Positions 16,128 through 61,608 of a DNA stretch of 64,000 nucleotides are shown one piece after another. A program made the translations under genes and the position numbers. The notes under the pieces were generated by a model. That model was given only the letters and a program-made list of their open reading frames with translations. It was not told where the DNA came from and ran no database searches. This DNA comes from a virus. The DNA lies in IMG/VR virus record IMGVR_UViG_3300017925_000001, positions 1 to 64,000 of that record; one strand, written 5' to 3'. Each line of letters opens with the position of its first letter. Positions within the stretch are counted from its first letter, which is position 1.

Positions 16128-17792
16128 ATGCCAAGAATAAAACGAACTGAAGTAAAAGAACGACCAGCGTATCTTAGTCCTGACGGCACTATTGACCTTA
16201 GAAAGATATTTCAACTCCAGCCAAAACAGACGGAACTCTTGCAGATGCGTACGAGAGACGGAGTTCCTTATATCATGACGGTTGCTCCTCAATGTCTGAG
16301 TGTTGGAGGTTTCCGATCAGGTAAAACTGTAGGGTGGTTGATGTACTTCATCGAAAACTATTCTTTGGCGTATGAAAATTGTGACATACTTGTTCTTCGT
16401 AGAACATTTAAGGAATTAGAGGCAGGCTGTATAAAGGACTTCCTTACGTTTGTCCCAGCAGAGTTGTTTACTTATGATCAAACTAAGCACACTGCTACAA
16501 TGATAAATGGTTCACGCGTTGTGTTTGGTCATTGCAATAATAATAAAATGCGAGACATTGACCAATATCTGGGCACAAGCTATAGCGCGATCCTTGTTGA
16601 CGAGTGCGGTCAATTTTCTCCAGATGCTTGGGGCATGCTTTACTCAAGAAACATTGTAAGTGGTGCTTGTATACCTAATAAACACGGTCATCTTCCTATC
16701 CCAGTGATAGTTGGAGCAACCAACCCTCTTGGTCCTTATTACGAATATTATCGTACGGTGTTTGTGCAGAAGGAACCTTGGGAACGTCCTGAGGGCGCTA
16801 AGCGCGATGCTAATGGTGCATGGTGGGTGGAGTCTAATGGAGAGTTGCTGAACGTATACGACCCACGTTTGTATGCCTATCAGCGCTCAACCGCGATGGA
16901 TAACCCAGAATTCCTTAAGAGGGACCCGGGATTCCTAGCGCGTATGAACAGTTTGCCCAAGGCACAGCGTGACAAAAAACTGTTGGGCCTTGATGGAGCA
17001 GTCGAGGGGCAGTACTTCACCAACTTTGATCCTTATGAACATGTGATAGACCTTCGTGAAGATCCCGATGCTATCATTTTTGAACCGTGGCAGAAAGTGT
17101 GGGCGGGAAGTGACTGGGGGATTGGTCACGCTTGCGCTGCACACATGTTTACTAAGGCTTTGGTAAAAACTTCTAGCGGGGATTATCGACAAAAAGTAGT
17201 GTGCTTCAAAGAGCAAGTAACCACAGGGGGAAAAACACACAAAGAATGGGCGTTGTTGTTTAGTAAGATGTGTAAACTTCCAAACGGTGTAGAAGTTAAA
17301 CCTTCTTCTATTTTCTTTAGTCATGAGAAGTTTTCTAGACAAGTTAGCGCGCATACACCTGCAGACGAGTATTCAAAAGAACTTAAGACATATGGATTAC
17401 CCGCTGTAACTCGTGCTACGCAGGATCGCATAGGATCTGCGTCATTGATGTACAACATGTTATCTAATGGGGAATTGGTGATACTTGACACATGCAAGGA
17501 TATTATCAATGCGATTCCTTCGTTAATGCGTGATCCTGATAATATTGATGATGTACTTAAAGTAGATACACGCGGAGATGATGTTTACGATTCGTTTAGG
17601 TATGGACTGTTTGGACAGCTTGGCACAAGAAAAAGACCTGCAGAAATAGCTATTCAAGAACATGCAAAGGAGCTTGATCCCTTGGCGCGACATTTTTATT
17701 TGATGAAAATGGCTCACGACAAATCAAATTCTAACGAACCTTTTGTTCAGAAGAGTGTGCCTATTTGGCAAGGTAAATGTGGTTTAGCATAA
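16128..17792 (+). CDS. terL: Terminase large subunit
   Basis: Walker A GGFRSGKT, Walker B ILVDE, ATNP motif, nuclease DWG...DDVYDSFRY. Confidence 0.95.
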   Translation: MPRIKRTEVKERPAYLSPDGTIDLRKIFQLQPKQTELLQMRTRDGVPYIMTVAPQCLSVGGFRSGKTVGWLMYFIENYSLAYENCDILVLRRTFKELEAGCIKDFLTFVPAELFTYDQTKHTATMINGSRVVFGHCNNNKMRDIDQYLGTSYSAILVDECGQFSPDAWGMLYSRNIVSGACIPNKHGHLPIPVIVGATNPLGPYYEYYRTVFVQKEPWERPEGAKRDANGAWWVESNGELLNVYDPRLYAYQRSTAMDNPEFLKRDPGFLARMNSLPKAQRDKKLLGLDGAVEGQYFTNFDPYEHVIDLREDPDAIIFEPWQKVWAGSDWGIGHACAAHMFTKALVKTSSGDYRQKVVCFKEQVTTGGKTHKEWALLFSKMCKLPNGVEVKPSSIFFSHEKFSRQVSAHTPADEYSKELKTYGLPAVTRATQDRIGSASLMYNMLSNGELVILDTCKDIINAIPSLMRDPDNIDDVLKVDTRGDDVYDSFRYGLFGQLGTRKRPAEIAIQEHAKELDPLARHFYLMKMAHDKSNSNEPFVQKSVPIWQGKCGLA

Positions 17793-17793
17793 G

Positions 17794-17873
17794 ATCTCGA
17801 AGCTTAGCGGCTTCGGGCTAGCTCGGGAGGTGCCTCAATCACCTCCTTTGAGCGACCTATTGAGGAGGAAGAA
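17794..17873 (+). promoter_or_regulatory. SD-sequestering pseudoknot leader, copy B
   Basis: Hairpin 1 CTCGAAGC-TTAGCG-GCTTCGGG; stem GGAGGTG/CACCTCC; loop CCTCAAT pairs with ATTGAGG. Confidence 0.9.
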
Positions 17874-18575
17874 ATGTTTTATACATATCTGTGGTTACGA
17901 GAAGATGGTACCCCGTATTACGTTGGAAAAGGTTCTGGGCGTAGAGCATTTATAAACCATAGAAAACGTCGGGTGAGGATGCCCCTCGATAAAGAACGTA
18001 TTATCATTCAATATTTTGAGAATGAAACTGATGCCTTTGAAGCTGAGAAATTTCTTATATCATTTTTTGGAAGAGAAGATTTAGGTTTAGGATGTCTTCT
18101 TAATATGACAGACGGAGGAGATGGCCAATCTGGGTTGGTTCATAAAGAATCTTCCAAAGAAAAGATCAGACAGGCCCAAAAAGGTCAAAAGAGATCTGTA
18201 GAAAGAGTTAAAAAGACAGCAGACGCCTTGCGAGGAAGAAAAGGCAGGATGCTTTCCGAAGAAGAAAAGCAATACCTGTCTGATCTTTTTAAGGGTAAGC
18301 CTTGGTCTGAATCTAGAAGAAAAACTCAAGAAGAAAAACCTATCCGTATGGCTACTTGTCACCCCGATAGGAAGCACGCAGCTAACGGCCTGTGCAAAGA
18401 ATGCAACTACAGGGAATGGTCAATAAGAGTAGGCAGAAGACCTGGAACGGGAAAACTTAAAGGCTTTATTCCAACGTGTCACCCGGATAGGAAAGGACAT
18501 GCTAAAGGTTTATGCAAAGCCTGCTATGAAAGGGAAAGATTAGAAAAGAAAAGGAGAGCTCAGGATGCCCTATGA
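17874..18575 (+). CDS. Free-standing GIY-YIG homing endonuclease
   Basis: FYTYLWLREDGTPYYVGKG...R...E...LN.TDGG; NUMOD3-like repeat and two CHPDRK..GLC motifs. Confidence 0.9.
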   Translation: MFYTYLWLREDGTPYYVGKGSGRRAFINHRKRRVRMPLDKERIIIQYFENETDAFEAEKFLISFFGREDLGLGCLLNMTDGGDGQSGLVHKESSKEKIRQAQKGQKRSVERVKKTADALRGRKGRMLSEEEKQYLSDLFKGKPWSESRRKTQEEKPIRMATCHPDRKHAANGLCKECNYREWSIRVGRRPGTGKLKGFIPTCHPDRKGHAKGLCKACYERERLEKKRRAQDAL

Positions 18576-20628: not shown

Positions 20629-23283
20629 ATGGCAGATCCAGGTCAAGATGTAAATACAATGACGACCAATGCGCCGTCTGCAGCACCCCTGCCATACGAG
20701 CAGCCTGAGAAGCCAGAGGACAGTCCATTAGGAGCTTACGCTCCTTTCGACTGGTCTTCAGAGCCTTTCGCAGATTTGAGCAATGATGCCAAAGGTGTTC
20801 TGATGCAACTGGACGTAATAGCCACCAAGACAGACGTGGCTGCGCGTAGGTTTGAAGTTGAGCAATGCTGGGAAGCACTGCACTTCGACCGTGGTTATCA
20901 GCACTTGCTTCGCGGGAGACAAGGTGGTTGGATACTTCCTGGTCAAGCCTCGGGGTTTGGTGCTACATCACAGCAAAACAACAACACGATTTACGACACG
21001 AACGTGTACGGGTCTAAAGGAGACATTATTGTTTCTGCCCTTGCGCGTGAGGTGCCGAAAGTGGAATTCTTCCCCGCTGATCCAGAGTACGGGCCGGATA
21101 ACACCGCAGCTGAAGAGGCTGAGCGATTCAAAGAGATCTGGTCACGCAATAACTGTCTGCACAAGCTGTTGACTGAAGTTGCCCGAGTGTTCTGGAATGA
21201 AGATCGTGTCTTATTGTGGACACGATATGAATTGAATGGCCAGCTGTATGGTTTCGATGAAGATCAAGAGACCGCGCCTGTCACCTCCGAGGATATTCTA
21301 AATCCTCCCGATGACACTCCCACAGGACAAGACGGTCTTGATGATGTTCTGGCCCAGGTAGAATCCCCTCTTGAAGAGCAGAGCGAAAATCCTGACGAAG
21401 ACCAACAGCTGACTATGCCCGCTGCCCCTATGAAGAGGGCGCGAGGCATGGAAGTCACTACCTATCACGGCAAGCTTGATCACAAGTGCCCTATCGCGGT
21501 CGATGAAGTGAAGGACATGCAGTTTGTCCAGCTCATGGAAGATCTCGACGTAGCCATTGTGAAGGCAAAGTTTCCGTGGATAGCGGACAAGATTAAACCG
21601 GGATCTGACGGCAATTCTGAAACTGAGTTGGACAGAATCGCTCGTGAAAATACTCGCCAAGCCGTACTCGGTGCGTATGTCACAGGTGATTCATTGCAGC
21701 GCCACACAGTTGTGAAACACACTTGGTTTCGTCCCTCTATGTTCATGGACGCGAGCGTCAATGACACAGTGCGCGCTGAACTCATGGAAGCTTTCCCAAA
21801 TGGATGCTTGCTTGTCAAAGCAGGCTCAAACTTCGCCTTTGCTCGTAATGAGAGCATGGACGATCATATCGCCATAGGGCATGCTCTTGGTGGTAAAGGT
21901 CAGAACCGTAGAGCGTTGGGAAGCTCATTGATTTCGATCCAGAAGCGTATCAATGATTGGGTTGATCTCCAAGACGATTTCTTCAAACGTACTGTACCTA
22001 AAAAGTGGATGAACAGCCAGGCTTTCGACATCGAAGCTCTAAAGACACAAACCAATGTGCCTGGAAGTACGGGAGCATTCCTGCCGCAACCCGGCCTCAC
22101 CACTGCAGATCAGTACATTATGGTTGAACCTACGCCGCAACCGCAAGCTTCACTCGCGGATTTCATCAAGTGGTTCCTCACAACCCTCTCAGAAGAGATC
22201 AGTGGCGCGTTACCATCTTTGTTTGGAGCGGCTACAGGAGAAAACACAGTCGGTAATGCGCAGATCCAGAGAGATCAAGCGCTGCAGCGCATCGGGTGTC
22301 CTTGGAATAACATCCAGCTCCTATTTGCGGAAGCTGCCCGACAAGCTGTGAAATGCGCAGGGGACTGCCGCGATGGTAAAGTTCTACGACAATCTTTCAA
22401 AGACCTTGGTACTGTTACCGTCAACACAGGTTATTTGACAGGCAACGTACTGTGCTACCCAGAAAGCGACCCTTCGTTCCCAGAGAGTTCAGCTCAACGC
22501 GAAGCGAAGTTGAAGGAGTTGGTGGATGTCAGTGCCAATATCCCGCAACTTGCAGCGTGGTTGTTCGCCCCAGGAAACCTGACCACTCTACAGGCAGGTA
22601 TTCGTATGAAAGGTTTCAAAGTAGAAGGTGCGGACTCTATTAACAAGCAGAAATCGGAATTCGAACTTCTGCTGCGTTCAGGTCCCACGCAGAATCCAAA
22701 GTTGCTGAAGATCCAGAGCATCTTGGACGAAGCTGCTACCGATATGCAAGGGAAGCAGGCACAAGGTCTCCCGCCAGATCCGAAGGAACTTGCAGCAGTT
22801 GCGCAGATGCAGCAATTGCAAAAGCAATTGCCTCCTTTGGTAAGTACTATTCCTGTGGCGCAGGATGAAAGCGAAAATCACTCCATAGAAGCAGCTGCTT
22901 GCCTGATTTGGCTGAACGGTTCAGAAGGACAGAAATTCAAATATGGCAACCCGCAACAGCGCGCTGCGTACGCGAACGTCCACCTTCATTGGTCGGAGCA
23001 TTATGCTATGGCGAAGCAGATAGCTTTGGCTAATGCACCGCCTCAGAAACCACCAAGTGAAAGCCTCAGTGTAGATGTATCAAAAATGCCTCCAAATGTG
23101 GCGATTCAAGCACTTGGCAAGATGAATATCAAGGCTACTCCACAGGATTTTGCGCAACATGATGCTAATACTTTGGACATGGCCGTGAAGAAAAAAGTTA
23201 TACCCGACGCACTCAAAGGTGAGAAACCTCAACCTGTAGCATCTCCACAAGGTGAGGGTCAACCTCGTCAATTGCGTCGTTAG
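20629..23283 (+). CDS. Portal protein (P22-like, large)
   Basis: 884 aa between terminase and scaffold/capsid; Q/P-rich C-terminal tail. Confidence 0.8.
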   Translation: MADPGQDVNTMTTNAPSAAPLPYEQPEKPEDSPLGAYAPFDWSSEPFADLSNDAKGVLMQLDVIATKTDVAARRFEVEQCWEALHFDRGYQHLLRGRQGGWILPGQASGFGATSQQNNNTIYDTNVYGSKGDIIVSALAREVPKVEFFPADPEYGPDNTAAEEAERFKEIWSRNNCLHKLLTEVARVFWNEDRVLLWTRYELNGQLYGFDEDQETAPVTSEDILNPPDDTPTGQDGLDDVLAQVESPLEEQSENPDEDQQLTMPAAPMKRARGMEVTTYHGKLDHKCPIAVDEVKDMQFVQLMEDLDVAIVKAKFPWIADKIKPGSDGNSETELDRIARENTRQAVLGAYVTGDSLQRHTVVKHTWFRPSMFMDASVNDTVRAELMEAFPNGCLLVKAGSNFAFARNESMDDHIAIGHALGGKGQNRRALGSSLISIQKRINDWVDLQDDFFKRTVPKKWMNSQAFDIEALKTQTNVPGSTGAFLPQPGLTTADQYIMVEPTPQPQASLADFIKWFLTTLSEEISGALPSLFGAATGENTVGNAQIQRDQALQRIGCPWNNIQLLFAEAARQAVKCAGDCRDGKVLRQSFKDLGTVTVNTGYLTGNVLCYPESDPSFPESSAQREAKLKELVDVSANIPQLAAWLFAPGNLTTLQAGIRMKGFKVEGADSINKQKSEFELLLRSGPTQNPKLLKIQSILDEAATDMQGKQAQGLPPDPKELAAVAQMQQLQKQLPPLVSTIPVAQDESENHSIEAAACLIWLNGSEGQKFKYGNPQQRAAYANVHLHWSEHYAMAKQIALANAPPQKPPSESLSVDVSKMPPNVAIQALGKMNIKATPQDFAQHDANTLDMAVKKKVIPDALKGEKPQPVASPQGEGQPRQLRR

Positions 23284-23287: not shown

Positions 23288-23365
23288 ATCTCAGGACTTA
23301 TAAACCTGAGCTAGAGTAGGGAGGTGCGCGAACATCTCCCTTCTCGCCTTTTCGCGGAGGAATCA
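23288..23365 (+). promoter_or_regulatory. SD-sequestering pseudoknot leader, copy C
   Basis: Hairpin 1 CTCAGG/CCTGAG; stem GGGAGGTG/CATCTCCC; loop CGCGAA pairs with TTCGCG. Confidence 0.9.
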
Positions 23366-23974
23366 ATGATTGTTTATTTGATAACAAACGAAGTGAATGG
23401 AAAACAGTATATAGGTCAGACCGTTCGCAGTTTGCAAGTACGTTGGAAAAAGCACTTGTCTGCTGTGGTTTTGGGCAGTGAGTATTATTTTCACAAAGCC
23501 ATAAGAAAATATGGTGAAGAAAACTTTTCTTTGTTAGTACTCCACATTTGTGAAACCAAAGAAGAGATGGACTTTACCGAAGTGTTCTACATTTCTTTGT
23601 TGGGCACAAAAGCTCCTAAAGGATACAACTCTACCGAGGGTGGAGAAGGAACTGTAGGGCATAAACATACTGAAGAGTCCATTCAGAAAATGAGAAGTTC
23701 TCATAGTGGTCATAGAACCACTGAAGAACACAAAGAAAAGTTACGAAAAGCTTCCGAAGGAGTTCCGAAGTCAAAGGAGCATTGTCGCAGCATTTCTGAA
23801 GGAAGAAAAGGTATAAAATTTTCTTCTGAGCACCGAAAGAATATAAGTTTAGGACACATCAGAAATATTTGCCATCGTGGTCACAGTAGGATTCCTGCTA
23901 ATCTCAACAGAGATGGATCATGTAAACAATGCAAAAGGATTACAGAGCTTAAGAGATTGGGGAGGAGCCTTTGA
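23366..23974 (+). CDS. Free-standing GIY-YIG homing endonuclease (Seg/I-TevI-like, NUMOD3)
   Basis: IVYLITNEVNGKQYIGQT...R...GYNSTEGG; HTEE repeats; start set to the ATG after GGAGG. Confidence 0.92.
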   Translation: MIVYLITNEVNGKQYIGQTVRSLQVRWKKHLSAVVLGSEYYFHKAIRKYGEENFSLLVLHICETKEEMDFTEVFYISLLGTKAPKGYNSTEGGEGTVGHKHTEESIQKMRSSHSGHRTTEEHKEKLRKASEGVPKSKEHCRSISEGRKGIKFSSEHRKNISLGHIRNICHRGHSRIPANLNRDGSCKQCKRITELKRLGRSL

Positions 23975-24597
23975 TGGCAGACAAGAAGCTAATTGCTGTG
24001 ATACAAAGGCACGGAAGCACCACTCTCAATGAGGACAACTGCTTTCGTGGCAGAAGTGATCCACCTCTTGATGAAAAAGGTGTTGCCCAAGCTGAGGATA
24101 TGGCTGACAGTCTGAAGAACGAGGGCATCGAGATCAAACGTGTTGTTTCATCTCCCATGCTCAGGGCTTGTCAAACAGCAGACATTATCGCTGACCTTTT
24201 TGGTTTGAAAGTAGAACAAGATCGAGCAATAATCTCCTGGGATCTGGGATTTCTCAGTGGGAAAGACAAGGATGAATACGGTCCTGTGCTCGACCTTTTT
24301 GTGAACAATCCTAAACTGGCGATACCTGCCGGGGAATCTTTGGACTCCTTGGAGCAGCGCCTGTACGATTATTTCGAAAAGGAATTTCGGAAAGACAAGC
24401 TGACTTTGTACTGTACGCACAACAGCAACATCGTTACCCTGGAAACATTGATCGCGGGTGAAAAGGTTGGTAGACCAGAAGCTTCGGAGACATCAGTACA
24501 GCCCGGTGGCGCTCTGGGAATCTATGTAGACTCTGATGGTAAGTACAGCACAGAGGTCTTGTTTGGTAAGGAAAAGCAAGCAGATTTTGGAAGTTAG
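23971..24597 (+). CDS. Histidine phosphatase (phosphoglycerate mutase family)
   Basis: RHG motif, SSPMLRACQTA, GES, THN. Confidence 0.9.
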   Translation: MMADKKLIAVIQRHGSTTLNEDNCFRGRSDPPLDEKGVAQAEDMADSLKNEGIEIKRVVSSPMLRACQTADIIADLFGLKVEQDRAIISWDLGFLSGKDKDEYGPVLDLFVNNPKLAIPAGESLDSLEQRLYDYFEKEFRKDKLTLYCTHNSNIVTLETLIAGEKVGRPEASETSVQPGGALGIYVDSDGKYSTEVLFGKEKQADFGS

Positions 24598-29260: not shown

Positions 29261-29335
29261 TAAATTTAGGGCTTTCTGCAGGAAGTCCTTGGGTTGGAGT
29301 CCTGCTGCAGCGGGATTCCTTCTCAGAATTAGTTT

Positions 29336-47116: not shown

Positions 47117-47126
47117 GGAGAAAATC

Positions 47127-48543: not shown

Positions 48544-48558
48544 ACAAGGAGGACTCAG

Positions 48559-49356: not shown

Positions 49357-49365
49357 GGAGTTACT

Positions 49366-50967
49366 ATGGCATATCTGCTTCCACCTTACTATATTGATGA
49401 GAACCCCATAACTCCGAACCTATTTTTGGGTTTGTGGGGCATGGATGTAGCGATAGCCAAGAATTTTGTAAAAATTGATTCAGCCTTTGGTGCCCTGAGC
49501 TTAACTTTTGATGTGAACGGCGTACCTGTTCCTCCTCCAGCCGAATTTGTGAACAGTGGCACCGTTACATTCTCGGTTGTGGGAAGCGTTGTCACTGCTA
49601 CTGCAATTGCTGCTGTGGGTTCAGCTGCATGGGCTACGCTCACAGGGGATCTCACTGAGTTGCAAGTTGTGCCGTGGGATGGCCCCACGATTGGTACGTC
49701 TGACACAGGTATTTCTCGCATTGCTGGGGGCACCCTTGCTATAGGAAACGGAACTACAGGTGATTTCTCTGGTAGCCTTAAGTTGACGGGTATTGATATT
49801 GTTGGGGCACTGACTGATGGTACAAGCTCTGTAGGTACTTCTGGAGAGGTTTTAAGCAGTACTGTTACTGGGGTAAAATGGGTTCTCCTCAATCAGGCCC
49901 CCCCGGGCGCACAAGGTACAACAGGCGCACAAGGTACAACGGGCACAACCGGCACGCAAGGAACAACTGGCTCTACGGGTGCTCAAGGTACAACAGGTTC
50001 TCAAGGAACCACAGGTACGACAGGTATTCAAGGCACAACTGGAGCAACTGGTGCTCAGGGAACGACCGGAACTACAGGCATTCAAGGTACAAGCGGGACG
50101 AATGGTTCGCAGGGTACGACCGGCGCTACTGGGGTACAAGGCACCACAGGAACAACAGGGCCTCAAGGGACAACCGGGGCTACGGGAGCACAAGGCACAA
50201 CTGGTACACAAGGTGCTACCGGCACACAAGGAACGATTGGGGCTCAAGGCACTACGGGTGATACAGGAGCCCAAGGGACTACCGGCACTACCGGCTCGCA
50301 GGGGACTACGGGCACGACGGGTTCTCAGGGCACAACGGGAACCACCGGCTCGCAGGGGACAACCGGCACTCAAGGTACTACAGGTACGACGGGAACCCAA
50401 GGAACGACCGGCACTACCGGAACTCAAGGCACAACTGGTACAACAGGCTCTCAAGGCACTACAGGCACACAAGGCACTACTGGTACGACGGGTTCTCAGG
50501 GTACTACAGGAACCACAGGTTCTCAAGGAACGACCGGCACTCAGGGAACAACAGGTTCAGGTTCCCAAGGTACTACCGGGGCACAAGGCACTACGGGTGC
50601 TCAGGGGACAACCGGAAAGGTAATCTCGTTCCAGTTTGGTACACCAGGCGGGGCTGCGATTAGCACAGGTATTCTCGGGTATATTACAGTACCTTTTGGC
50701 TGCACGATTGTTGGGTGGAGTATTGAAGTCGATGCAGGGACGGCAACAGTCAAGACTTTGAAAGTGGCAAGCGGAACAGCGATTCCCACTATAGGTTCAA
50801 ACTCTATCAGCACAAGTGGTGTGGCTATTTCTACTGGAACGGTGGTCCAAAGTGCAGTTACCTCTGACTTTACGACAACCACAGTTACCGCCAACGACAT
50901 TATCGGGGCGGACTTGTTTACGGTTAGCGGGGTAGGATACATCAACTTCCAGTTGCAGGTTCAGTAG
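49366..50967 (+). CDS. Collagen-like fibre protein
   Basis: Uninterrupted Gly-X-Y repeat (GxQGTT) at about 49906-50616; shared N-terminal anchor motif. Confidence 0.9.
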
Positions 50968-50974
50968 GAGGAGT

Positions 50975-51658
50975 ATGGGATTTACACATTCTCAGAGCAA
51001 GTTGGTAAATGGAACAGTTACGGTGGCTACCCCACTGGCGGTTACCTTGACCAGTAATCCCTCACTTGGGGATGTTGTATGGGTGTCAATTTTCAACGTT
51101 ACAGGAGCCTCAATAGGAGACTTAACTGTACTAGATTCCAATAGTAATAGCTATACTAAAACAGCTAACTCTCCTTATACTTTAGGAGATAATTCTATTT
51201 CCTTGTATTATTTAATAGCTCCTTCTAATGCGACTAATAGCCTTTCAGTTCACGCATCCCTTGTCACCGCTATTATCTACGTTGCAGTAGATGATTTTGC
51301 AGTAAGTGGAGGAAATGCTACTTATGATAAAGAAGCTAAAGGTACTGGTACTGGTACTACAATAAATACCCCAAGTATAACCCCTACTTACCCTAATTCT
51401 TTATTGTACTCTACCGCTGCGATATCCGTGGCAGGCATAACTGCTCCAAATGCTGGAGCTACTCTAGGTAGTTGGACTGGTGGAGCCGGTCAATCGCCTT
51501 CTAGTACGAAGTACAACGATGTAGAGTATATACTTAGTGCTACCGGAGCAACAGCCGTAAACTATTCATGTAGTTCTGGTAATTGGATAGCTTTGGTAGA
51601 TGCGTTTTATATCCCTAGTGCCGCAGTCACAAACAAGCCACACGTTCAAATGTTTTAA
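50975..51658 (+). CDS. Beta-rich virion/fibre-associated protein
   Basis: SD AGGAGG; S/T-rich beta pattern. Confidence 0.7.
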   Translation: MGFTHSQSKLVNGTVTVATPLAVTLTSNPSLGDVVWVSIFNVTGASIGDLTVLDSNSNSYTKTANSPYTLGDNSISLYYLIAPSNATNSLSVHASLVTAIIYVAVDDFAVSGGNATYDKEAKGTGTGTTINTPSITPTYPNSLLYSTAAISVAGITAPNAGATLGSWTGGAGQSPSSTKYNDVEYILSATGATAVNYSCSSGNWIALVDAFYIPSAAVTNKPHVQMF

Positions 51659-51660
51659 CA

Positions 51661-51737
51661 ATCCCAAAGCTTAGCGGCTTTGGTGTAGAGTCGGGAGGTG
51701 CCATTCCACCTCCCCGCTCGACCTGAATGGAGGAACT
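51661..51737 (+). promoter_or_regulatory. SD-sequestering pseudoknot leader, copy F
   Basis: Hairpin 1 CCAAAGC-TTAGCG-GCTTTGG; stem GGGAGGTG/CACCTCCC; loop CCATTC pairs with GAATGG. Confidence 0.9.
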
Positions 51738-52733
51738 ATGATTAACAGAAATTTTGTGCGTTTAGTTTTGGCTGAAGGTGGAACAATCAAACCGTTGATG
51801 ATTTCTTCTGTTGACTCTGGTGGGCTTGGGCTCTGTAACCCGTCAGTGTTTGTTGATCACGGTGAAATTTGGTTGATACTCAGAAATGTCAGTTACACGA
51901 TATACCACTGCGAAAATGAGAAGAGATTCAATAGTCGGTATGGTCCGCTGAGTTATCTCAATCCAGAGCATGACCAGCATTTGCGGACTACGAATTTTCT
52001 TTGTAAGTTGACACCAAGTCTCGAAATAGAACGATACTGGAAAATCGACACTAGCCATCTCGACAAAGAACCGCTCTGGGAGTTTACGGGTTTGGAAGAC
52101 GCTCGTCTCGTACGTTGGGATGGGCATCTGTACGGTATCGGAGTTCGGCGTGATACAACAACCAACGGTCAGGGACGGATGGAGTTTTCGGAACTCGAAT
52201 TGGTCAACGACACTGTAAAGGAAATCGGGCGATATAGAATTGAACATCCTACGGCTCCTGAATGGTATTGTGAAAAGAATTGGATGCCAGTGTTGGACAT
52301 GCCTTACCATTTCATCCAGTGGACAAATCCTGCGGTATTGGTTAAAGCTAACCTTACGACTTTGAAGTCCTATCGGGCGATTGAGGTCAATGAGTCTGGC
52401 AAGATTGAAGGCATGCCATTTCTCCGTGGGGGTTCCCAAGTAATCCCTTGGCATAACTATTACATCTGTATTGTCCACGACTGTGACCTGACCAAGAATC
52501 TCATAGGACAAAAAGATGCTACTTACATGCATCGGTTTGTGGTCTATGACCGGAATTGGAATATAGTTAGGATTGGCGACCAGTTCTCTTTCATGGATGG
52601 GGAAATCGAATTCTGTTGTGGACTCGCAGAATATGAGAAGGACTTCTTGATGACGTTCGGTTTTCAAGATAATAGTGCTTGGATTTTGAAAATTCCATCA
52701 TCTATAATTCCCAAATTGATCGGAGTAGCATGA
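51738..52733 (+). CDS. Five-bladed beta-propeller glycosidase/phosphorylase-like (GH130-like) protein
   Basis: NPSV, GLEDARL, EKNW.P, RGGS, IEFCCGL, FGFQD. Confidence 0.8.
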   Translation: MINRNFVRLVLAEGGTIKPLMISSVDSGGLGLCNPSVFVDHGEIWLILRNVSYTIYHCENEKRFNSRYGPLSYLNPEHDQHLRTTNFLCKLTPSLEIERYWKIDTSHLDKEPLWEFTGLEDARLVRWDGHLYGIGVRRDTTTNGQGRMEFSELELVNDTVKEIGRYRIEHPTAPEWYCEKNWMPVLDMPYHFIQWTNPAVLVKANLTTLKSYRAIEVNESGKIEGMPFLRGGSQVIPWHNYYICIVHDCDLTKNLIGQKDATYMHRFVVYDRNWNIVRIGDQFSFMDGEIEFCCGLAEYEKDFLMTFGFQDNSAWILKIPSSIIPKLIGVA

Positions 52734-53467
52734 CCTTCTATACTTACACGTATCTTCGTGCAGACGGAACTCCGTATTATATCGGTAAAGGGAAAGACTA
52801 TCGTGCGTTCAAGAATGGGGGTCGCCCATGCAAGAAACCGATTTACCATTCTCGTATTCTAATCCAATATTGGAAGTCTGAAGAAAAAGCGTTTGAAATG
52901 GAAGTCTGGTGGATCAATTTTTGGGGACGTAAGGATAACGGAACAGGTATTCTTAGAAATTTATCTGATGGAGGCGCAGGCAAGGCGGGATTTATACCTG
53001 ACCCTGAACAGGGGCGCAAACACAGCAAATTTCTGAAAGACAAATTTGCATCAGGAGAGATGGGACCTCCCGGCGCTCAGTCTATAGAGGCGAGAAAAAA
53101 ATTAAGTACATCGCTGAGGGCGGGACATGCCTCTGGGGAAATAGTTACTTACAACAAAGGAATCCATGCTACTGATGAGCAAAAGGCAAAATGGTGGACG
53201 CCAGAACGGAGAGCCGCTCAAGCCGAACGGTGTCGTAAAATGGCAATGGAAGTTATTTTTACTCCTGAGCGTAGAGCTGCTTTAGCCGCTGCCGCTGCTA
53301 AAAGATTTAAGGGAATTCCTCAATCCGAAGAACAGAAAACCCGAGCTAGAGAAGGTTGGAAAAAAGCTTGGACTCCAGAACGTAAAGCCGCTCGATCTGA
53401 GAGGGCAAAAGCGCAGGGATTTGGAACTATTATTCATCCATCAGTTCGGAGGAAAGATGTTTCCTGA
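52730..53467 (+). CDS. Free-standing GIY-YIG homing endonuclease
   Basis: FYTYTYLRADGTPYYIGKG...LRNLSDGG; (W/F)TPERR/K repeats; ATGA coupling. Confidence 0.9.
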   Translation: MTFYTYTYLRADGTPYYIGKGKDYRAFKNGGRPCKKPIYHSRILIQYWKSEEKAFEMEVWWINFWGRKDNGTGILRNLSDGGAGKAGFIPDPEQGRKHSKFLKDKFASGEMGPPGAQSIEARKKLSTSLRAGHASGEIVTYNKGIHATDEQKAKWWTPERRAAQAERCRKMAMEVIFTPERRAALAAAAAKRFKGIPQSEEQKTRAREGWKKAWTPERKAARSERAKAQGFGTIIHPSVRRKDVS

Positions 53468-54014
53468 ATTACTGAGATATATATCTGATCCCAAGAATGC
53501 AGAATATAATTTCCAACTCGGACTTTGGTATGAGAATTGGGGTCACACTGCGGGAGCAGCGGGTTTCTATGTTCGGGCGGCAGAATACTCCTCAGATGCT
53601 TTGCTATCCTATGAAGCTTTGCTGCGAATCGCCAATATCTTTACACGGCAAGGTGGTCGTGTCTACATGGTCAAGGGTGTTTTGTTGCGGGCCATATCCT
53701 TGATACCAGAGAGACCCGAGGCATATTTTCTTCTTAGTCAAGTGTATGAGAAAAACAAGGATTGGCAAGAAGCATACAGCTTTGCTGTAATGGGGCAACG
53801 ACTCAGCGAAGACCAGCCTAAGCTTAGGACAAACGTGGAATACCCGGGGAAGTACGCTCTGGTTTATGAGCAGGCTGTCTCCGCATGGTGGATTGGTTTG
53901 TTCAAGGAATCCATCACTCTTTTTAAGCAGCTTCAGAAAAACAAGACAATGCTGCCGATCCATAGCGTATCCGTACAGGATAATTTGCAACGTTTAGAAG
54001 GATTAGTAAGGTAG
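53457..54014 (+). CDS. TPR-repeat protein
   Basis: P.NAEYNFQLG, PERPEAYFLLS; SD GGAGG. Confidence 0.8.
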   Translation: MFPELLRYISDPKNAEYNFQLGLWYENWGHTAGAAGFYVRAAEYSSDALLSYEALLRIANIFTRQGGRVYMVKGVLLRAISLIPERPEAYFLLSQVYEKNKDWQEAYSFAVMGQRLSEDQPKLRTNVEYPGKYALVYEQAVSAWWIGLFKESITLFKQLQKNKTMLPIHSVSVQDNLQRLEGLVR

Positions 54015-54035
54015 AAACAGGAATAGGAGTTCAAT

Positions 54036-54875
54036 ATGTCAGTAACACTTTACCCAGGTGGTGACAACCCTGTCACTCCGAATCTTGGTTTGGCCTTGTG
54101 GGACATGAGCATGACCATGGCTGAGAACTTTGAACTTCTGGACTCGGCTGTGGCAGCAGGAAGCCTCAAGGTGAATGAGGCTTTGGTCACAGCCCCAAAC
54201 TTTGTCAACAGCCCTACCGTCACGTTTTCTGCGGTTGGGTCAAATATTTCCTTAAACGCAGCTGATGATTTTTTATCTCTTGCTGGTAATACACCTACTA
54301 CCCCAGTAACGGGCTCCATTTACTGTAATGCTTCATTCACTTTACCAGTTGTTGGAGATTTTACTGGAGGATGGACTACTGAGGATGTCACAGGAAATAT
54401 TATCGCATCTGGTAACAGCTCTTTAGTAGGAGGGCCAGCAATATTTTTCACTGTACCGGGCTTTGCATACTATTTCAGTGCAGACTTGGCCGGTGTATCA
54501 TTCAACTCTCTAGCGGGTGCCACAATAGAAATTCTTAAAGGTTCTGGTGTTGATGTAGCCCACGTAGGAAACTCTACCGGTAATGCCGGAATGGAAACAG
54601 ACACATTTAGCCCTGATAGTAACAGCTTTTATGGTGATCCAGTAGTTATTGGACAAAGTAACGATACTATATCTTCTAACTCAATCGTTATCTCTAGCGC
54701 AACCGGAACAATAGTCAATGGTCCGTTTATTGAGGCTACAACTAAAACTCCGGCATCATCTTCTGCCGCAGGGGTCACGGGCCAGATCGCTTGGGATCAA
54801 AGCTACATCTACGTTTGTTTGAACGGCTCAACTCCGAAATGGGGTCGGGCAGCACTCACTTCGACAGGTTGGTAA
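54036..54875 (+). CDS. Fibre-like virion protein
   Basis: Shared N-terminal anchor motif; C-terminal PASSSAAG..GQIAWD..YIYVC...W.RAAL. Confidence 0.75.
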   Translation: MSVTLYPGGDNPVTPNLGLALWDMSMTMAENFELLDSAVAAGSLKVNEALVTAPNFVNSPTVTFSAVGSNISLNAADDFLSLAGNTPTTPVTGSIYCNASFTLPVVGDFTGGWTTEDVTGNIIASGNSSLVGGPAIFFTVPGFAYYFSADLAGVSFNSLAGATIEILKGSGVDVAHVGNSTGNAGMETDTFSPDSNSFYGDPVVIGQSNDTISSNSIVISSATGTIVNGPFIEATTKTPASSSAAGVTGQIAWDQSYIYVCLNGSTPKWGRAALTSTGW

Positions 54876-54909
54876 AGAAAGAAAGAAAGAGAAAACATAG
54901 GAGAATTAA

Positions 54910-55443
54910 ATGAAGAACGTATTGAAAGCGGTTTTATTCGCTGCTATGTCTATCTCTTTATTTGGGACATGCCTTGCACAAGAAGGCAGATTGCAAGTAA
55001 AGACTCAGACGCACACTTTAGCACTAAAAGAAAAAATCAAGGTTGATCCACCTACCAAGTATGTTTTGTCTGGCACCTATTTGGTATCCGGCAACGGCAA
55101 TGTAACGTACATAGAACCTTTGTCTGTTACGTATCTTGACGACCCCTTAACAGTAACGTGCGCGAGCACATGTTCAATCCTAGGCAGCTTAACAGTGCAG
55201 ACCAGTGGAAGTATTTCCAGTAATAACCTGGCTGTATGTATGCTTGTGGATGGAGAACCTGTTCCAAACGGTTGTCAATGGTCTACTGATACTCCAGGTG
55301 ATGGTACTTTTGTTGAAAGTTCTGTTTCTTCTTGGGTAGTAGATTTGCCTGCTGGGGAACACACAGTACAGACGGCCATAGCTTCTGAGTATGGCTGTGA
55401 TTATGAATACTGGGGCTTTCAATATTCTGTGTACAAGCCGTAG
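54910..55443 (+). CDS. Secreted hypothetical protein
   Basis: Sec signal MKNVLKAVLFAAMSISLFGTCLA. Confidence 0.75.
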   Translation: MKNVLKAVLFAAMSISLFGTCLAQEGRLQVKTQTHTLALKEKIKVDPPTKYVLSGTYLVSGNGNVTYIEPLSVTYLDDPLTVTCASTCSILGSLTVQTSGSISSNNLAVCMLVDGEPVPNGCQWSTDTPGDGTFVESSVSSWVVDLPAGEHTVQTAIASEYGCDYEYWGFQYSVYKP

Positions 55444-55450
55444 GGAAAGC

Positions 55451-55525
55451 ATCTCAGGTCCTCGAAACCTGGGCTAGAGCTGGAAGGAGCCTAACTCTCC
55501 TTCCTTGCTCGATCTGATTTAAGAG
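55451..55525 (+). promoter_or_regulatory. Pseudoknot leader, degenerate copy G
   Basis: ATCTCAGG/CCTGGG-CTAGAG; stem GGAAGGAG/CTCCTTCC; loop CCTAACT pairs only imperfectly with TTAAG; no SD or ATG at the usual position. Confidence 0.7.
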
Positions 55526-55561
55526 CTGAATATCTAGAAAAGTGGAAGGAAGGGTAGCGAT

Positions 55562-58500
55562 ATCGGACATAACCTTAAACAACTGGGTAAGTAAGTTGCC
55601 CCCTCAGTCAGTAATGATTGAGCGCAGAACCAAGAGAATTCGGTGAAACGCCCTCTGGGCCAATACCGAGCCGAGCCGCTAATGCGGAAGGTGTAACGAC
55701 TATCCCGCAAGGGAGTAGGGAACAGTGTTCCCGAAGTACTTGGGGTCCTGAAAAGGATCATGATATAGTCTGGTCTTACTGGCAACAGTAAGAGTTCGAA
55801 TGGAAACGATTCGAGCGTAACATATAAACGACAGCTTCTTTGGATTGTTTTGGCGGTCTTATTACCATGGCTCAAGCCCGTGATTTGCCCGAAGGTGCGA
55901 GTCCGAGATGTTTCGACGTTGACTTTACAGTCGGTAGCGTAGCCACTCGTCCCGGCTTAGTATCCGTGTATACCTACGCAAATACTTGGGCCATCACCTC
56001 GTACTCCCTTGGTAGTGGTGGTCTTGCAACATTTAACTACACCGGTATCCCCGAGATCACCGAGAACGAAGGATTGATCCTCAGCGGATTCCAAGGACCT
56101 CTCAGTGTTTTGAACGGAACCACGATATATGCCGAAGCTGTAACCATGAACACTTTCATGGCACAAGTAGTTGGACCCTTGGGCACCTTTGTCAACCTAA
56201 GCGCCAGCGCAGTTTCCCTAGTGGGCTCCTTTGTAGGGCCTAACCAAGGGGTTGCCTCTAGCACTTCTTGGAGTAGTCCGCAGAACGTGTTCAGTCCCAC
56301 GGGGTACGCCTCGGCAAGCGGAGGACAGACATACAGCCCTGCGATTGTCCCTGGATCAACGTCTAGCACTTCATCTACAGCTTGGACTAACCCAAGCTAT
56401 GCTTTGTCCACAAGCCCAAGTACGTACGCTACTGTGAGTTCTCTTGGTGCAGGAGTGTCCGCACCCCTCTATGCGAGTGCTTTGGGCTTGTCTGTACCTC
56501 CCAATGCAACAATCACAGGGGTGAAGGTCGCATTCTCTGCTAGAGCTACAGAGGCCAGCGGTAATCCATACGTCATTGCTCAGCTTGTGCTGGGAGGGTC
56601 GCAAAGTTACTTGGGAAGCGCAGTAAATATTCCTATCGCAGCGAATGGCGCGAGTTTGGCTCCATACAATTATGGTTCCTCAACGTTTCAATGGGGTACC
56701 ACTCTGACGCCCGCGATTGTCAATGATCCTACTTTCGGGTTTGACCTAAGCGCTTTCACGGGAACTCTGTCGAACAACTTTCATTATTATTTGAACAGCC
56801 TCGTGGTCGCGGTTTACTACACCACATCGGCTACAACAGAGATTCTGACGGCCAACAGTTTCGGATTCTCGATCTCGTTGTCTTCTGGAGTCTCAGGGTT
56901 CAACACCACTTTCAAAGCGTATTCCAGCGCATCTACTTCGGCAGTGTTTCAACTACTTGAGAACGGAGTTCCTCAGGGCACTCCTAAGACTCTTCCTCTC
57001 ACCACTACGCCCACGGTGTATAATCTGGGCGGGCCTGAGGACCCTTGGGGCTATGTCTGGTCAGCAGCCAACGTCAACTCTCCGCAGTTTGGAATTCAGA
57101 TCACAGCCGAAGGAGTCGGCACTACGTACGTAGGGGACTTGGATGTCACCACATTTGTCACCCCGGCGCTATCGAATTTCAACTGGATTGGGAGCTATGA
57201 GCAGACGAATGCTGCGCTTACCACTCTGGCTCTTGATGCTGATGGCAACATGTGGGCTGAGAACGTTCTCAATAACCCTGGGGTACTATCGCTCTCATTG
57301 AGCGGTTTGCTTCCAGATTCGTACGCGGTTGGAGCTACGATGAATGATTCCGAGTTCATCATGTTCTCGGATCTGAATATCGGCACCGACCGTCCTCGTC
57401 AGCTCTACAACGATGGAAACTGGTATCCGGTGACCCAAGTGGGCCCTGGTAGTGCTCCGACATTCTTGGCTTCCACAGGTGGGATTACTAATACCCTGCA
57501 CATCAGCGCTTACACAGCAGTCGCAGGCACACCCACTATTCCGTCATCAACGACCTTCACAATATCACCTGTGGCAGCTGTAGCTCCGGTTGTTGGATCA
57601 CTTTATGTACTGAGCGGATTCACTGGGCCGGACGCAGTATTGAATGGTCAGGTGGTCACGGTTTTGACAGGTGCAACCACTGCTAGCTTTTCAGCAGATG
57701 TATCGGTTACTGCTCCAGGCAACACCGCTGTCGTAGCTCTTGCTACGCTCACCTTCGCATATCCCATAGAGAGCATCAAACAATTGGGGTACATTACGAG
57801 CGGTCTGAGCGGTGGGGTGCTTTGGTTCCTTCTGAGTACAGGACCTAACCAGTCTGCTCAGGGCAGTGTAGTGACAGTGTACTACGCATATGCATCGCCT
57901 TCACTAGCGCCAAATTTGAACCTTCAGAATGCTTGGAATGCGTCTGTGGCTGGAACTGGTCCTCCAGTTTACGTGCAGATCAATAATGCAGCCAATGTCA
58001 ATGGTTACAATTTTGATGGGATCTGGCAAGTCACAGGCATAGGGTACAACCATTTCTTGGGGTATACCTCACAGGGGTATTACTTCACTTTCCAGTACAC
58101 TGAGTCTGGTTTTGCCAACGGCACCAACAATGCCACGGCTTATCTGACACAAGCCACGTTGACCTTAGCTTCCCCTGGTGTCGTTGGGATCACGAATAAT
58201 ACACCCATCACTATTACAGGGGTCACAGGAAGTTCTCCAGATCAGGTAGGGTACAACAATACGTGGGTTATCACCAACGCTGTCAATACAGGTCAGTATA
58301 ACATCACTGAATCCCAGTATAATGGCGCTGGGGTTGCGACCTTCACATACAACTTCGCCTCTTTAACTAATAGTCAAGTTCCTGTTGTAGGTAATACCAT
58401 TCAGATCATAGGCGTCACCAACAATGCCGCCATGAACGGTATCTTTGCAATTTCGGCTGTGAATGCTGGCGCTTCTACATTCAGCGTGCTAGTGACTATC

Positions 58501-60858
58501 CCAGGCCTTGCAGCGCAGCCCTCAGCTATTGCTGAGAATAGTGCGCAGGCAACTATGGCTGGTACGCAGTTCATATTTGATCCTGGGGCTTTGCTGGCGG
58601 GCAGCGCATCTGGAAATGCTATATTTGGAACAGCGACCGATGGAGACGTATCATTCATTGGTGTTACGCTGGTTCCGATAGGGGCAGGTACGCGCCAAGG
58701 TGTCGTGTTCTTCATTACGAAGACTGGCTCTTGGACGCCTGCGTCTCCTCCTGTAACATTCACTATTGCAGCTGATGCAAACCAGCTCAATGTGTCGAAT
58801 ATCCCAATTGGACCTCCTGATGTCGTTGGCCGAGGCATAGCAATTACCGAGGCCGGTGCCAATGGCGTCCCAGGGGCAAACTTCTACGTGATCGAGACCG
58901 CCGTAACCACAACTGTAAACACAGTGGTGACTACGAACACGTCTACGATCATCAAGGATAACACAAGCACCACAGCTTCCTTTAGCTTTTCGGATGCTGT
59001 CCTTCTGAACTCTACAGAAGTTGACGTGCCCAGCCTAGACATTTTCAACACGATTGAAATAGGCAGCTGCGCATGGTGCGTTCCTTATTCGAGCAGAATG
59101 TTCTATGGCCTGCAGCTGAACAAGGTGCAGAACTTTAACAACCTGACGTTCGACGGGGGATATGTAGTTCCGAATCAACCTGCAGGTTGGGGCTTGAATC
59201 TCGCCACAAGCGTTCCTACAGAATTGGAGCTGATAATCAGCCCGGTTACTGGAGACGCAATCTACATCCTTAACTCAACGGGGAGCATTCAGCCACAGTT
59301 TGGCATGCTCTATCAGACGGCCTATCAGGACCCCTACAACGTTGCGATCATACAGAACAACACAGCGTATTCGGTACGCGTGGCCTGTTCCTGTCCTTCG
59401 GGCGTTGCTATAGGGAATCTCGTGATTGACCTCACGCAGTTCAATAACGGCAACTTCACGCAAGGGGCAAACGGCCTCGGCGTGTACGGCTCGTTCGTGC
59501 TACCTTTGTCTGAGATGTCACCTTCAGTACGAGTCTACACAGGGCCACTGCTTGCTGCGTCTGTGTTCACTGGGAATGTCGATCCATACCTGACGTTCCG
59601 CGTTTGGGCTCAAAACATGGGCCTAGGGGCAGACTTGCTCATCGACCGTATCGAAGTCTATCCTACGCTTTTCCCTTACCTTAAAACTGAGGTCTATGGG
59701 TCATACATAGGGCGACCAGAGATGGTGGACGCATCGGGGGACGGGGGCATTATCGACACGTCTACTGAGAATCCGCAGCCTGTCATGGGAGCGTTTGTGC
59801 TTCGTGATAGTCTATACTTGCTCAAGACGAATAGCATGTACGTGACTAAGGATAATCCAACTTCAGAGCCATCAGGCTGGTCCATAAACGAAATAGATAA
59901 TAGGGCTGGTGCATGTGGTATCAACGCATACGACACGGGTGAGGAATGGGCGATCATGGCATGCCGCAATGGCATCTATGGTTTCGATGGGGGCAAGCCT
60001 GAACTGCTCAACTTGGAAATACTTCAGGTTTGGAATTGCATCAATTGGAACGCGGGAAACTCCATATGTCTGAGGAATGATACGGAAAACCGTAGGATTC
60101 TCTGTACAGTTCCGCTGCCCACTGGGACAAGCCCTGATGGCGTTGCAACCGCAACGACTACATGGCTCCCCTACGCACCGTATAACCCTGCTCCGACTAC
60201 TCCCAATGTCATACTCGTATGTAACTATGAAGCCATAGGGTCGTTTGAAGAGTTACTAAAAGACCAAGGTGTCCATGCTACGATGTTTGGCCAGTTGGCG
60301 AACCCAGATATGCGCCGTAAGTGGACAATCTGGAACATACCAACTCCTTATTTAGGACAGGTCACTAGAGCCAACTTACTTGAGATAACATTGATGGTTT
60401 GTAACGGAATTGACTCTTCAAAGATTTATCAATTTGAAGATGAAGCCACCAGTGATGATGGGGCTCCGATACACTCACTTTATTGCGGCTACGGTTTTGT
60501 CAACGCGGCCAAAGCAGTGACCATGCCCATTTTTGGGCTCCATCAGAAGCGATACACATTATTACAGTTTAATGCTAATGGTGCTGGGCAGATGAATGTC
60601 ACGTTGTTCCCTAATGATTTGGGGGCAAGATACCCATTGACTGTCCCACTAGGATTGCCTTATGGCATCGCTCTGGTTGACCCCGCAAACGATGATTACT
60701 TTAGGCCAATCAACATCAAGGCACAACGGTGCTTCACGCAATGGGAAACCAATGCTGTTGGGGCGTGGTTTGAACTTTGTCATGTTTTGCTTTCAGGAAA
60801 ACAAGATCCATGGTCCTCACTCAATCCAACGGGTGGAGGTTCGAACGGGATAGTTTAA
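55562..60858 (+). CDS. Tail tubular B / stabilisation (P22 gp10-like) protein with a large beta-rich insertion; join(55562..55588,55831..60858)
   Basis: Exon 1 (M)GHNLKQLG joins TASLDCFGGL in frame; FGGL...P.GAS...RPG N-terminus; precedes the ejection genes. Confidence 0.7.
55589..55830 (+). mobile_element. Group I intron 3 (ORF-less)
   Basis: P1 GGGT/GCCC; core GAATTCGGTGAAAC, AATACCGAGCC, GACTAT, GATATAGTC; terminal G; close relative of intron 2. Confidence 0.9.
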
Positions 60859-60859
60859 T

Positions 60860-60939
60860 ATCTCAAGGCTTAGCGGCCTTGGGCTAGAGTTGGGAAGTGC
60901 TATGAACACTTCCCTTCTCGCCTTTTCATAGGAGGAATT
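60860..60939 (+). promoter_or_regulatory. SD-sequestering pseudoknot leader, copy H
   Basis: Hairpin 1 CTCAAGGC-TTAGCG-GCCTTGGG; stem GGGAAGTG/CACTTCCC; loop CTATGAA pairs with TTCATAG. Confidence 0.9.
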
Positions 60940-61608
60940 ATGCCAACAGGAATTTATGAAAGAAAACCAACAATACCTAGAATGTCTAACTGTCACCCTG
61001 ATAGAAAACATTTTGGAAAAGGAATGTGCAACCAGTGTTATCATAAGGCTTACCACGTACAGCATAAGCACTCGTTTGTAGATGAGTTTGGTATTTCAAT
61101 ACCAGAGGGCTTCTATACCTACCTCTGGTTCAGGGCAGATAGCACCCCATATTATGTGGGAAAAGGCAACGGAAAAAGAGCCTACGTAAATCATGGACAT
61201 TCGTTTCACAGACCTGTGAGTAGGGCAAGGATTTTTGTGCAATATTGGGAGTCTGAGGAAAAGGCGCTTGAGATTGAGGCTTGGTACATTGCTTTTTATG
61301 GGCGCATAGACAAAGGCACAGGTTGTCTCAGAAACCTAACAGATGGAGGAGAAAATCCTCCAGGCAATAAAGGTGTAAAGTTTTCAGAAGAGCACAAACG
61401 AAAAATAAGTGAAGCACAGAAAGGCCCTAAGGGACATTGGTTTGGAACAAAGAGGCCTTTTGTTTCTAGAGGTAAAGGTCGAGTACAAAACCCTGAATGG
61501 ATTGCTAAAAGGGTAGCCAGTACAAAAGCAACTCGTGAGTGTAAGAAGAAAGGAGACCCTACGGTATGCAAGGCAGAACTAGCGCGCTCGATGGCGGGCA
61601 AGAGCTAA
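60940..61608 (+). CDS. Free-standing GIY-YIG homing endonuclease
   Basis: FYTYLWFRADSTPYYVGKG; N-terminal CHPDRKH motif; FSEEHKRKIS NUMOD3. Confidence 0.9.
   Translation: MPTGIYERKPTIPRMSNCHPDRKHFGKGMCNQCYHKAYHVQHKHSFVDEFGISIPEGFYTYLWFRADSTPYYVGKGNGKRAYVNHGHSFHRPVSRARIFVQYWESEEKALEIEAWYIAFYGRIDKGTGCLRNLTDGGENPPGNKGVKFSEEHKRKISEAQKGPKGHWFGTKRPFVSRGKGRVQNPEWIAKRVASTKATRECKKKGDPTVCKAELARSMAGKS

Follow-up and report, generated by a model that had tools for sequence, protein, structure and literature searches.

We identified a family of mobile nuclease cassettes, each headed by a common leader RNA, in a 64,000-nt stretch of phage DNA, namely bases 1–64000 of the 109,724-bp IMG/VR record IMGVR_UViG_3300017925_000001, which has direct terminal repeats. 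Here we refer to this whole stretch as the window. The leader is about 80 nt long and folds into two hairpins and a pseudoknot that runs into a Shine-Dalgarno (SD) sequence, while the open reading frame (ORF) behind it encodes in most copies a predicted homing endonuclease. The units occupy gene junctions that are empty in related phages, and we read them, with a probability of about 65%, as free-standing homing-endonuclease cassettes at which the leader acts in cis and holds down translation of the nuclease.

The phage belongs to an uncultured clade from peat, with no cultured relative. Near-identical DNA was present in several peat metagenome runs, with no RNA run among the public runs listed, and a search of cultured phages showed ~25% identity of the terminase to those of Arthrobacter and Acinetobacter phages and zero matches for the portal protein and the leader. 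Related phage contigs are denoted by L-numbers.

A leader RNA with a pseudoknot at the Shine-Dalgarno sequence

The leader begins with a hairpin of 6–8 bp (H1), followed by a conserved UAG and by a long hairpin (P2). The outer part of P2 is usually GAG/CTC (CTC/GAG in copy B), and the inner part is often GGGAGGUG/CACCUCCC, an SD/anti-SD-like stem that was found in about half of the leaders. After P2 comes a conserved CGACCU linker and then 6–7 nt which are complementary to the entire P2 loop and run into the SD, forming a pseudoknot of 6–7 bp between the whole loop and the 5′ edge of the SD.

Over 57 distinct sequences, 94.6% of the cells at these positions were paired, versus 73% with shuffled columns and 40–56% when the partners were slid, and changes on both sides were seen in 18 of the 19 pairs, with dozens of independent compensatory changes in support of the structure. 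U-G was the commonest pair at one H1 position, which indicates that the structure belongs to the sense strand, i.e. to RNA. Of 58 distinct leaders, 56 showed perfect complementarity of the loop and the SD edge over 6–7 bp, and 38 different loops occur among them, while only 6% of mismatched loop/tail combinations reached 6 bp. The two leaders that lost it (G in the window and the one at position 2984 of L008) are those that no ORF follows. Among the 56 complementary leaders, all but one have the 3′ strand of the pseudoknot ending 6–10 nt before the ATG; this strand takes in the first 2–3 bases of the SD, i.e. a conserved RNA helix contains SD nucleotides. The energy of this helix ranged from −5.4 to −7.7 kcal/mol. 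H1 and the P2-pseudoknot part occur as modules in shuffled combinations, also with the nuclease types, and an identical module of P2 and pseudoknot was seen behind three different H1 types, where it is followed by three different types of protein N-terminus.

The leader had no match at the gathering threshold in Rfam 15 over the window, and at E values up to 10 only chance-level matches (at most 16 bits) were obtained; literature searches returned no description of such a leader. It appears that the leader RNA is undescribed; the cassette lifestyle is already known.

Ten leaders were found in the genome, eight in the window (A–H) and two beyond it (genome positions 69682 and 77199). A covariance model trained on 24 copies gave scores of 58–77 bits for B, C, F, G and H, with E values of 1e-13 to 1e-19 for the copies in the window, and weaker yet significant matches were seen at 13200–13288 (A) and 29330–29423 (D); leader E was recognised by eye from its matching architecture. 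The model also identified ~70 further leaders in 60 related contigs, each in the sense orientation of the following ORF. The repeat is not due to chance.

All eight leaders in the window are on the + strand. Leaders B (17794–17873; 71.7 bits), C (23288–23365; 73.1 bits), F (51661–51737; 76 bits) and H (60860–60939; 76.8 bits) have H1 at 17796–17817, 23290–23310, 51663–51683 and 60862–60883, P2 at 17821–17853, 23314–23345, 51688–51719 and 60887–60919, and the 3′ strand of the pseudoknot at 17859–17865, 23351–23356, 51725–51730 and 60925–60931, respectively. Leader A (13228–13275; 35.9 bits) consists of P2 and the pseudoknot without H1, its loop CCTCATA pairing with TATGAGG at 13262–13268, after which the SD follows. 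Leaders D (29337–29411; 31 bits; P2 at 29361–29391) and E (33344–33394; P2 at 33344–33368) are of diverged types, with the loops CCTAGAA and CTTACC pairing with TTCTAGG at 29397–29403 and GGTAAG at 33380–33385, respectively; E lies ~175 nt downstream of a terminator-like hairpin (33142–33168). In case of G (55451–55525; 58.4 bits), which is what is left of a decayed cassette, H1 and P2 are intact, and the pseudoknot partner, the SD and the ORF are lost.

Pfam annotation of 51 ORFs downstream of leaders revealed Endonuclease_7 (16), NUMOD3 (11), GIY-YIG (8), HNH (7), MUG113 (1) and HNH_3 (1). Judging from these domains, one leader type serves GIY-YIG, HNH and EndoVII-type genes alike. A clustering of the downstream ORFs into nuclease families by BLAST was dropped because common zinc modules merged most of them, and the Pfam counts were used instead.

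According to Pfam and PHROGs, the ORFs behind A–E and H and behind the two outer copies, which both precede HNH ORFs, encode predicted homing endonucleases of the GIY-YIG and HNH/His-Me finger families, the exception being the first ORF behind F. On the + strand of the window, the ORF behind A (13276–13602; 108 aa) has a MUG113/T5orf172-type (GIY-YIG-like) domain, nuclease B (17874–18575) a GIY-YIG-type N-terminus (MFYTYLWLREDGTPYYVGKG) with NUMOD3, nuclease C (23366–23974) a GIY-YIG domain (PF01541, E 1.7e-11), nuclease D (29412–30068) an Endonuclease VII domain (PF02945, E 1.1e-10) and nuclease E (33395–34009) an endonuclease VII/HNH match (PHROGs, E 1e-17). Nuclease H (60940–61608) carries GIY-YIG and NUMOD3 together with a zinc module (CHPDRKH..C..C) that is shifted to the N-terminus. 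Directly 3′ of leader F lies a 331-aa ORF (51738–52733, + strand) with no recognisable nuclease, assigned to a family of hypothetical viral proteins and faintly linked to GH130; its stop overlaps (ATGA) the start of F2 (52730–53467, + strand), a GIY-YIG nuclease without its own leader. Most leaders in the window thus head a nuclease, but F heads a non-nuclease ORF and G has no ORF at all.

Occupied, empty and decayed junctions

A first-pass annotation of this DNA had proposed that leader and endonuclease are inserted together between a stop codon and the next gene, and this is supported by empty sites in related contigs at three junctions, those of terL with a 144-aa gene, of the portal gene with the next gene and of the 1672-aa gene with the next gene. 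At each of them the cassette is present in some genomes and absent from others. At the terL junction, the empty allele of L033, with a TerL that is 93% identical, reads ...TAG-GAGAACTTAGAATG, while the window reads ...TAA-G-(leader B and nuclease B)-GGAGAGCTCAGGATG; on comparison, the insert lies 3′ of the stop codon and 5′ of the native SD. Neither leader nor nuclease was present here in about 15 other relatives, and the gaps between the genes are 3–54 nt across the empty alleles. Other relatives hold different occupants at this junction: L043, L048 and L059 carry a different leader variant with an I-TevI-like GIY-YIG gene, and L060 a third combination of a leader with yet another ORF. Deletion remnants were also found there, with the 5′ half of the leader joined to the 3′ end of the nuclease in L047 and L049, and a 12-nt leader footprint joined to the native SD in L037. 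Behind the 1672-aa gene, L006 has an empty junction, and L014 and L028 carry a different nuclease there. At the portal junction, L018, L005 and L025 are empty and have a 497-aa gene directly 3′ of the portal gene. Relatives of the gene upstream of cassette F were sought and none were found, hence F has no demonstrable empty site.

The left edge of the cassettes was confirmed: ATC(T/C)C starts 1 (B, 17794), 4 (C, 23288), 2 (F, 51661), 7 (G, 55451) and 1 (H, 60860) nt after the stop codon of the ORFs at 16128–17792 (terL), 20629–23283, 50975–51658, 54910–55443 and 55840–60858, respectively, and B, C, F and H contain no group I intron core. The borders of the empty sites align with the left edge of the leader; ATCTC, on the other hand, is no separate boundary word, since its CTC forms the first three pairs of H1 and relatives show ATCGC, ACCTC and ATACA instead. 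At the right edge, the overlaps between the nuclease stop and the next start were found as annotated (18575/18565, 23974/23971, 30068/30061, 34009/33984, 53467/53457 and 61608/61566), with a second ATG, that of a histidine-phosphatase gene, at 23974 at the end of nuclease C. All six nuclease ORFs extend 3–43 nt past the next start codon (8 nt in D, 11 nt in B and F2, 43 nt in H), and an SD-like purine run lies within their last codons. The proposal that the nuclease supplies this SD to the next gene fails at the terL junction, the only one at which the origin of the SD could be tested, since the empty alleles there have the identical GGAGA(A/G)CTCAG(A/G)ATG. The nuclease ORF simply continues across an SD and a start codon that are native to the site, and nuclease B takes its final codons and its stop from the host sequence.

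Leaders without a nuclease, which would sit poorly with a cassette, do occur (G in the window, L014:3708, L008:2984 and L047); they take the form of visibly decayed cassettes. At the G site, L014 has a leader with a 30-aa ORF remnant, and the synteny 5′ of this site differs in that contig. Regarding the suggestion of an intron-free invasion of an operon, the inserted unit is indeed a cassette and not an intron, but this is the already known lifestyle of free-standing homing endonucleases and not a new principle. No terminator-like site was found on the + strand inside cassettes B and C.

Comparing contigs of four peat/wetland runs with positions 44001–64000 gave the joints 60937→61614 and 51727/8→55531/43, possibly nuclease-less or leader-to-leader deletion variants. 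These are single contigs with short sides at 85% likeness within a multi-copy repeat, and they were not used as evidence.

Two other observations concern these junctions. GGAG-ACTCA-(1–4 nt)-ATG was found at many late-gene starts (window positions 16121, 24615, 30054, 32236, 48553 and others), the genome has 14 instances of ACTCA right before ATG, and the empty junctions of relatives contain the motif too; it may serve as an extended signal for ribosome binding or for late expression. The histidine-phosphatase gene after nuclease C (23974–24597; PF00300, E 2e-26) was found only in relatives with a nuclease at the portal junction; those with adjacent portal and 497-aa genes lack it. It may move along with the cassette, or it may be an accessory gene of its own.

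Possible action of the leader

In the reading that we favor, the unit of H1, P2, pseudoknot/SD and nuclease ORF follows the stop codon of a conserved late gene and precedes the next gene's native SD, with the nuclease ORF passing through this SD and start and stopping few codons into the downstream gene. As no terminator would be brought in, the neighbors would remain co-transcribed with their own ribosome-binding sites. Pairing of the P2 loop would bury the first 2–3 nt of the SD and set a compact pseudoknot 7–10 nt upstream of the AUG, which would lower translation initiation of a potentially toxic nuclease. The leader most likely limits nuclease translation. Sequence comparison shows the borders of the cassettes, their presence or absence among relatives, the RNA structure and its association with nuclease genes, while the direction of the effect on translation and the role of H1 are inferences. 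We infer translational control from the fixed register of pseudoknot, SD and AUG, from its loss together with the ORF and from T4 precedents, and we consider repression to be the probable direction because the nucleases are potentially toxic, the SD is partly buried and the compact fold abuts the 30S binding site.

H1 was present only where an ORF ends just upstream. Leader A, which lies ~20 nt behind a sigma-70-type promoter (13180–13209, + strand; TTGACA-18-TATAAT, 12/12, with a TG extended −10) and has no upstream ORF, has no H1, which suggests that H1 is needed only when an ORF ends upstream. Most likely, H1 insulates the pseudoknot from the upstream coding sequence and from terminating or scanning ribosomes. 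With low confidence we regard it as an insulator rather than a switch, since the predicted P2 fold does not change without the 5′ arm of H1 and the H1 types combine freely.

Some findings weigh against the favored reading. The ORF right behind leader F is not a nuclease; the SD is only partly paired and the helix is modest. Alternatively, the pseudoknot could expose the SD and raise initiation. In addition, the unpaired nucleotides are highly conserved (the UAG between H1 and P2, GC/C at the top of P2 and the CGACCU linker), several positions above 90%. Masking of the SD alone would require less than this, and a tertiary fold or the binding of a factor is hinted at. It is doubtful, yet conceivable, that the leader is a portable expression adaptor and the conserved core of the mobile unit, i.e. 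a factor- or ligand-responsive pseudoknot that times nuclease synthesis to a stage of infection (possibly via the SD/anti-SD mimic GGGAGGUG/CACCUCCC in P2) and also, through its repeated copies, provides homology for swapping unrelated nuclease ORFs and H1 modules between sites and genomes. The conservation of unpaired nucleotides, seen across leaders with variable helices, would suit a sensor that recognises a small molecule or a protein of phage or host and gates the SD by infection state, in the manner of a riboswitch or an operator. H-type pseudoknots ending in the SD are the architecture of several small riboswitch classes, and as unrelated nucleases share one leader, the nuclease cannot be its own repressor. 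We consider such a sensor unlikely, as the leader matched no Rfam riboswitch, it has no known candidate ligand or binding protein, and the conserved linker could merely stabilise the pseudoknot.

A switch coupled to the upstream gene had been suggested by the first-pass annotation: ribosomes ending the upstream gene would melt H1 and refold the leader, and nuclease translation would follow upstream translation. The spacing is compatible with this, with H1 starting 1–14 nt (mostly 3–8) after the upstream stop, within reach of a terminating ribosome, and so is leader A, which lacks both upstream ORF and H1. However, P2 was predicted to fold alike without the 5′ arm of H1 (0.91 vs 0.94 of its pairs in the structure of minimum energy), and alternative folds that depend on H1 were sought and none were found. 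The two arms of H1 covary freely and lack any conserved alternative partner, and H1 types and P2-pseudoknot types combine independently. Moreover, the tiny intergenic gaps in these genomes put any insert near a stop codon. The suggestion is thus unsupported, and we judge the switch to be quite unlikely. The chances are slim for an RNA processing element, either a self-cleaving ribozyme or an RNase site that splits the nuclease message from the upstream late-gene message. A compact fold that is conserved, contains a pseudoknot and has invariant unpaired nucleotides at the border of an ORF would suit such a role, but no Rfam ribozyme (hammerhead, twister, pistol, hatchet, HDV-like or others) matched at E values up to 10, and a role in translation is suggested by how tightly the pseudoknot is positioned relative to the SD and AUG. 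The least probable option in our view is an element acting as DNA, with the repeat as a recombination or target site, or an intron-like unit spliced from the RNA as a whole. The leaders are indeed dispersed direct repeats, their modules look recombined, and two group I introns adjoin cassette sites. Against this, the frequent U-G pairs would be C-A mismatches on the opposite strand, every copy has the orientation of the ORF behind it, B, C, F and H have no ribozyme core, the upstream genes end in stops, and the empty alleles consist of two separate genes.

For a cassette with a leader that restricts its nuclease there are partial precedents. The free-standing homing endonucleases of T4-like phages comprise seg (GIY-YIG) and mob (HNH) genes (PMC2988022). 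Like these, the nuclease genes described here lie between conserved genes in operon orientation, are present or absent among relatives and would be transcribed by read-through (PMC2988022); unlike them, they number about ten in a genome of 110 kb, lie for the most part in the late structural operon and have one leader RNA in common. Structures that sequester the ribosome-binding site control I-TevI, I-TevII, I-TevIII, segB and mobE (Aeh1), their proposed role being to restrict translation (PMC2988022). Our leader is similar in being an RNA structure that involves the ribosome-binding site upstream of a homing-endonuclease ORF. The T4-type hairpins are gene-specific, simple and relieved by late promoters starting inside them, whereas here one modular pseudoknot family (H1, P2 and the loop-SD helix) is common to GIY-YIG, HNH and EndoVII genes. 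As leader A is fully included despite its proximity to a promoter, relief by a truncating promoter is not indicated.

Bonocora et al. reportedly described in 2011 that T4 mobA and the 50-nt bypass element of gene 60 form one mobile cassette. There, too, a homing endonuclease moves together with a structured RNA, which allows the insertion to be tolerated; unlike in that case, no translational bypass is needed here, with the flanking genes being separate ORFs in empty alleles. The preQ1, SAM-II and fluoride riboswitch classes are SD-sequestering H-type pseudoknots, and the leader shares with them a small pseudoknot with a 3′ strand running into the SD, but differs in having no Rfam match, no known ligand, an extra 5′ hairpin and a selfish-nuclease context.

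Free-standing homing endonucleases are widespread in phages, but knowledge of what keeps them harmless within essential operons comes from only a few cases of the T4 type, in which the hairpins are gene-specific. One RNA fold on at least three unrelated nuclease families at many sites suggests a general, transferable expression solution for selfish nucleases, and for RNA biology a small pseudoknot in fixed register with the SD would be a new motif.

Group I introns and neighboring features

Rfam detected only two group I cores in the window (28995–29211 and 55579–55792), neither of them with an ORF. The first intron (28976–29247, + strand; RF00028, 74.4 bits) lies 4 codons before the end of a putative capsid gene, and the spliced C-terminus (...NAAV-PQV*) agrees with that of the intron-less L019 (...NAAV-PTV*). 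The second (55589–55830, + strand; 54.2 bits) lies 9 codons into the 1672-aa gene, with exon 1 ending at 55588, and the spliced N-terminus IGHNLKQLGTASLD agrees with the intron-less L014. An assignment of nuclease D as intron-encoded was dropped, since the spliced capsid stop (29260) precedes leader D; by its position, nuclease D is predicted to be free-standing, just downstream of an ORF-less intron.

Cassette D thus begins ~90 nt downstream of one ORF-less intron, and the decayed G lies ~60 nt upstream of the other. In what Bonocora and Shub reportedly termed 'collaborative homing' in 2009, the free-standing F-CphI works with an ORF-less group I intron of the cyanophage psbA gene. The position of D and G next to ORF-less introns, seen here from sequence alone, is similar, while most cassettes (B, C, F and H) have no intron nearby. 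Taken together, the occupied, empty and decayed sites are a natural series on the arrival of cassettes, their decay and their association with ORF-less group I introns.

Further observations were made on these introns and their host genes. No ATG, GTG or TTG was found in exon 1 of the 1672-aa gene between the in-frame stop (55535–55537) and the 5′ splice site (55588), and the first codon common to the window and the intron-less L014 is ATC (55562); the next 14 codons differ from L014 mostly synonymously and are hence coding, which suggests that the gene uses a non-canonical AUC start. In relatives (L008, L011, L012, L018, L020 and L029), group I introns interrupt the final ~40 codons of the capsid gene at no fewer than five positions, i.e. 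after ...LTSH, ...HMFA, ...NTCF, ...RAGL and ...NAAV, and L019 has no intron there. The capsid 3′ end is an intron hot spot adjoining a nuclease cassette site. In terL, inserts of ~250 nt (1720–1967 in L055–L057) and ~600 nt (4408–5015 in L060) interrupt the gene after about residue 140 and may be introns or inteins. The intron core at 55686–55720 was covered at 4–15 times the depth of its flanks in peat/wetland contigs, many of which diverge on both sides, indicating that closely related intron cores are abundant in those communities.

The promoter 5′ of leader A is one of two divergent near-consensus sigma-70 promoters in 13095–13209 (11/12 on the − strand and 12/12 on the + strand). They separate a leftward DNA-polymerase-like gene (10204–12666) from the rightward genes and probably mark an early/late or left/right transcription divide. 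Consensus scans for promoters and terminators showed no enrichment over shuffles.

A 1.3-kb contig binned to an uncultured Terracidiphilus (Acidobacteriota) metagenome-assembled genome (L069) carries a typical leader with a GIY-YIG gene at 1–420, which is a weak hint at the host group, insufficient for naming a host. At the left end of the phage genome, near the terminal repeat, ~22–35 tandem copies of a 15-nt unit were found (window 2–526). A long collagen-like Gly-X-Y repeat with a 9-nt period was also identified at 49904–50553, inside the ORF at 49366–50967.

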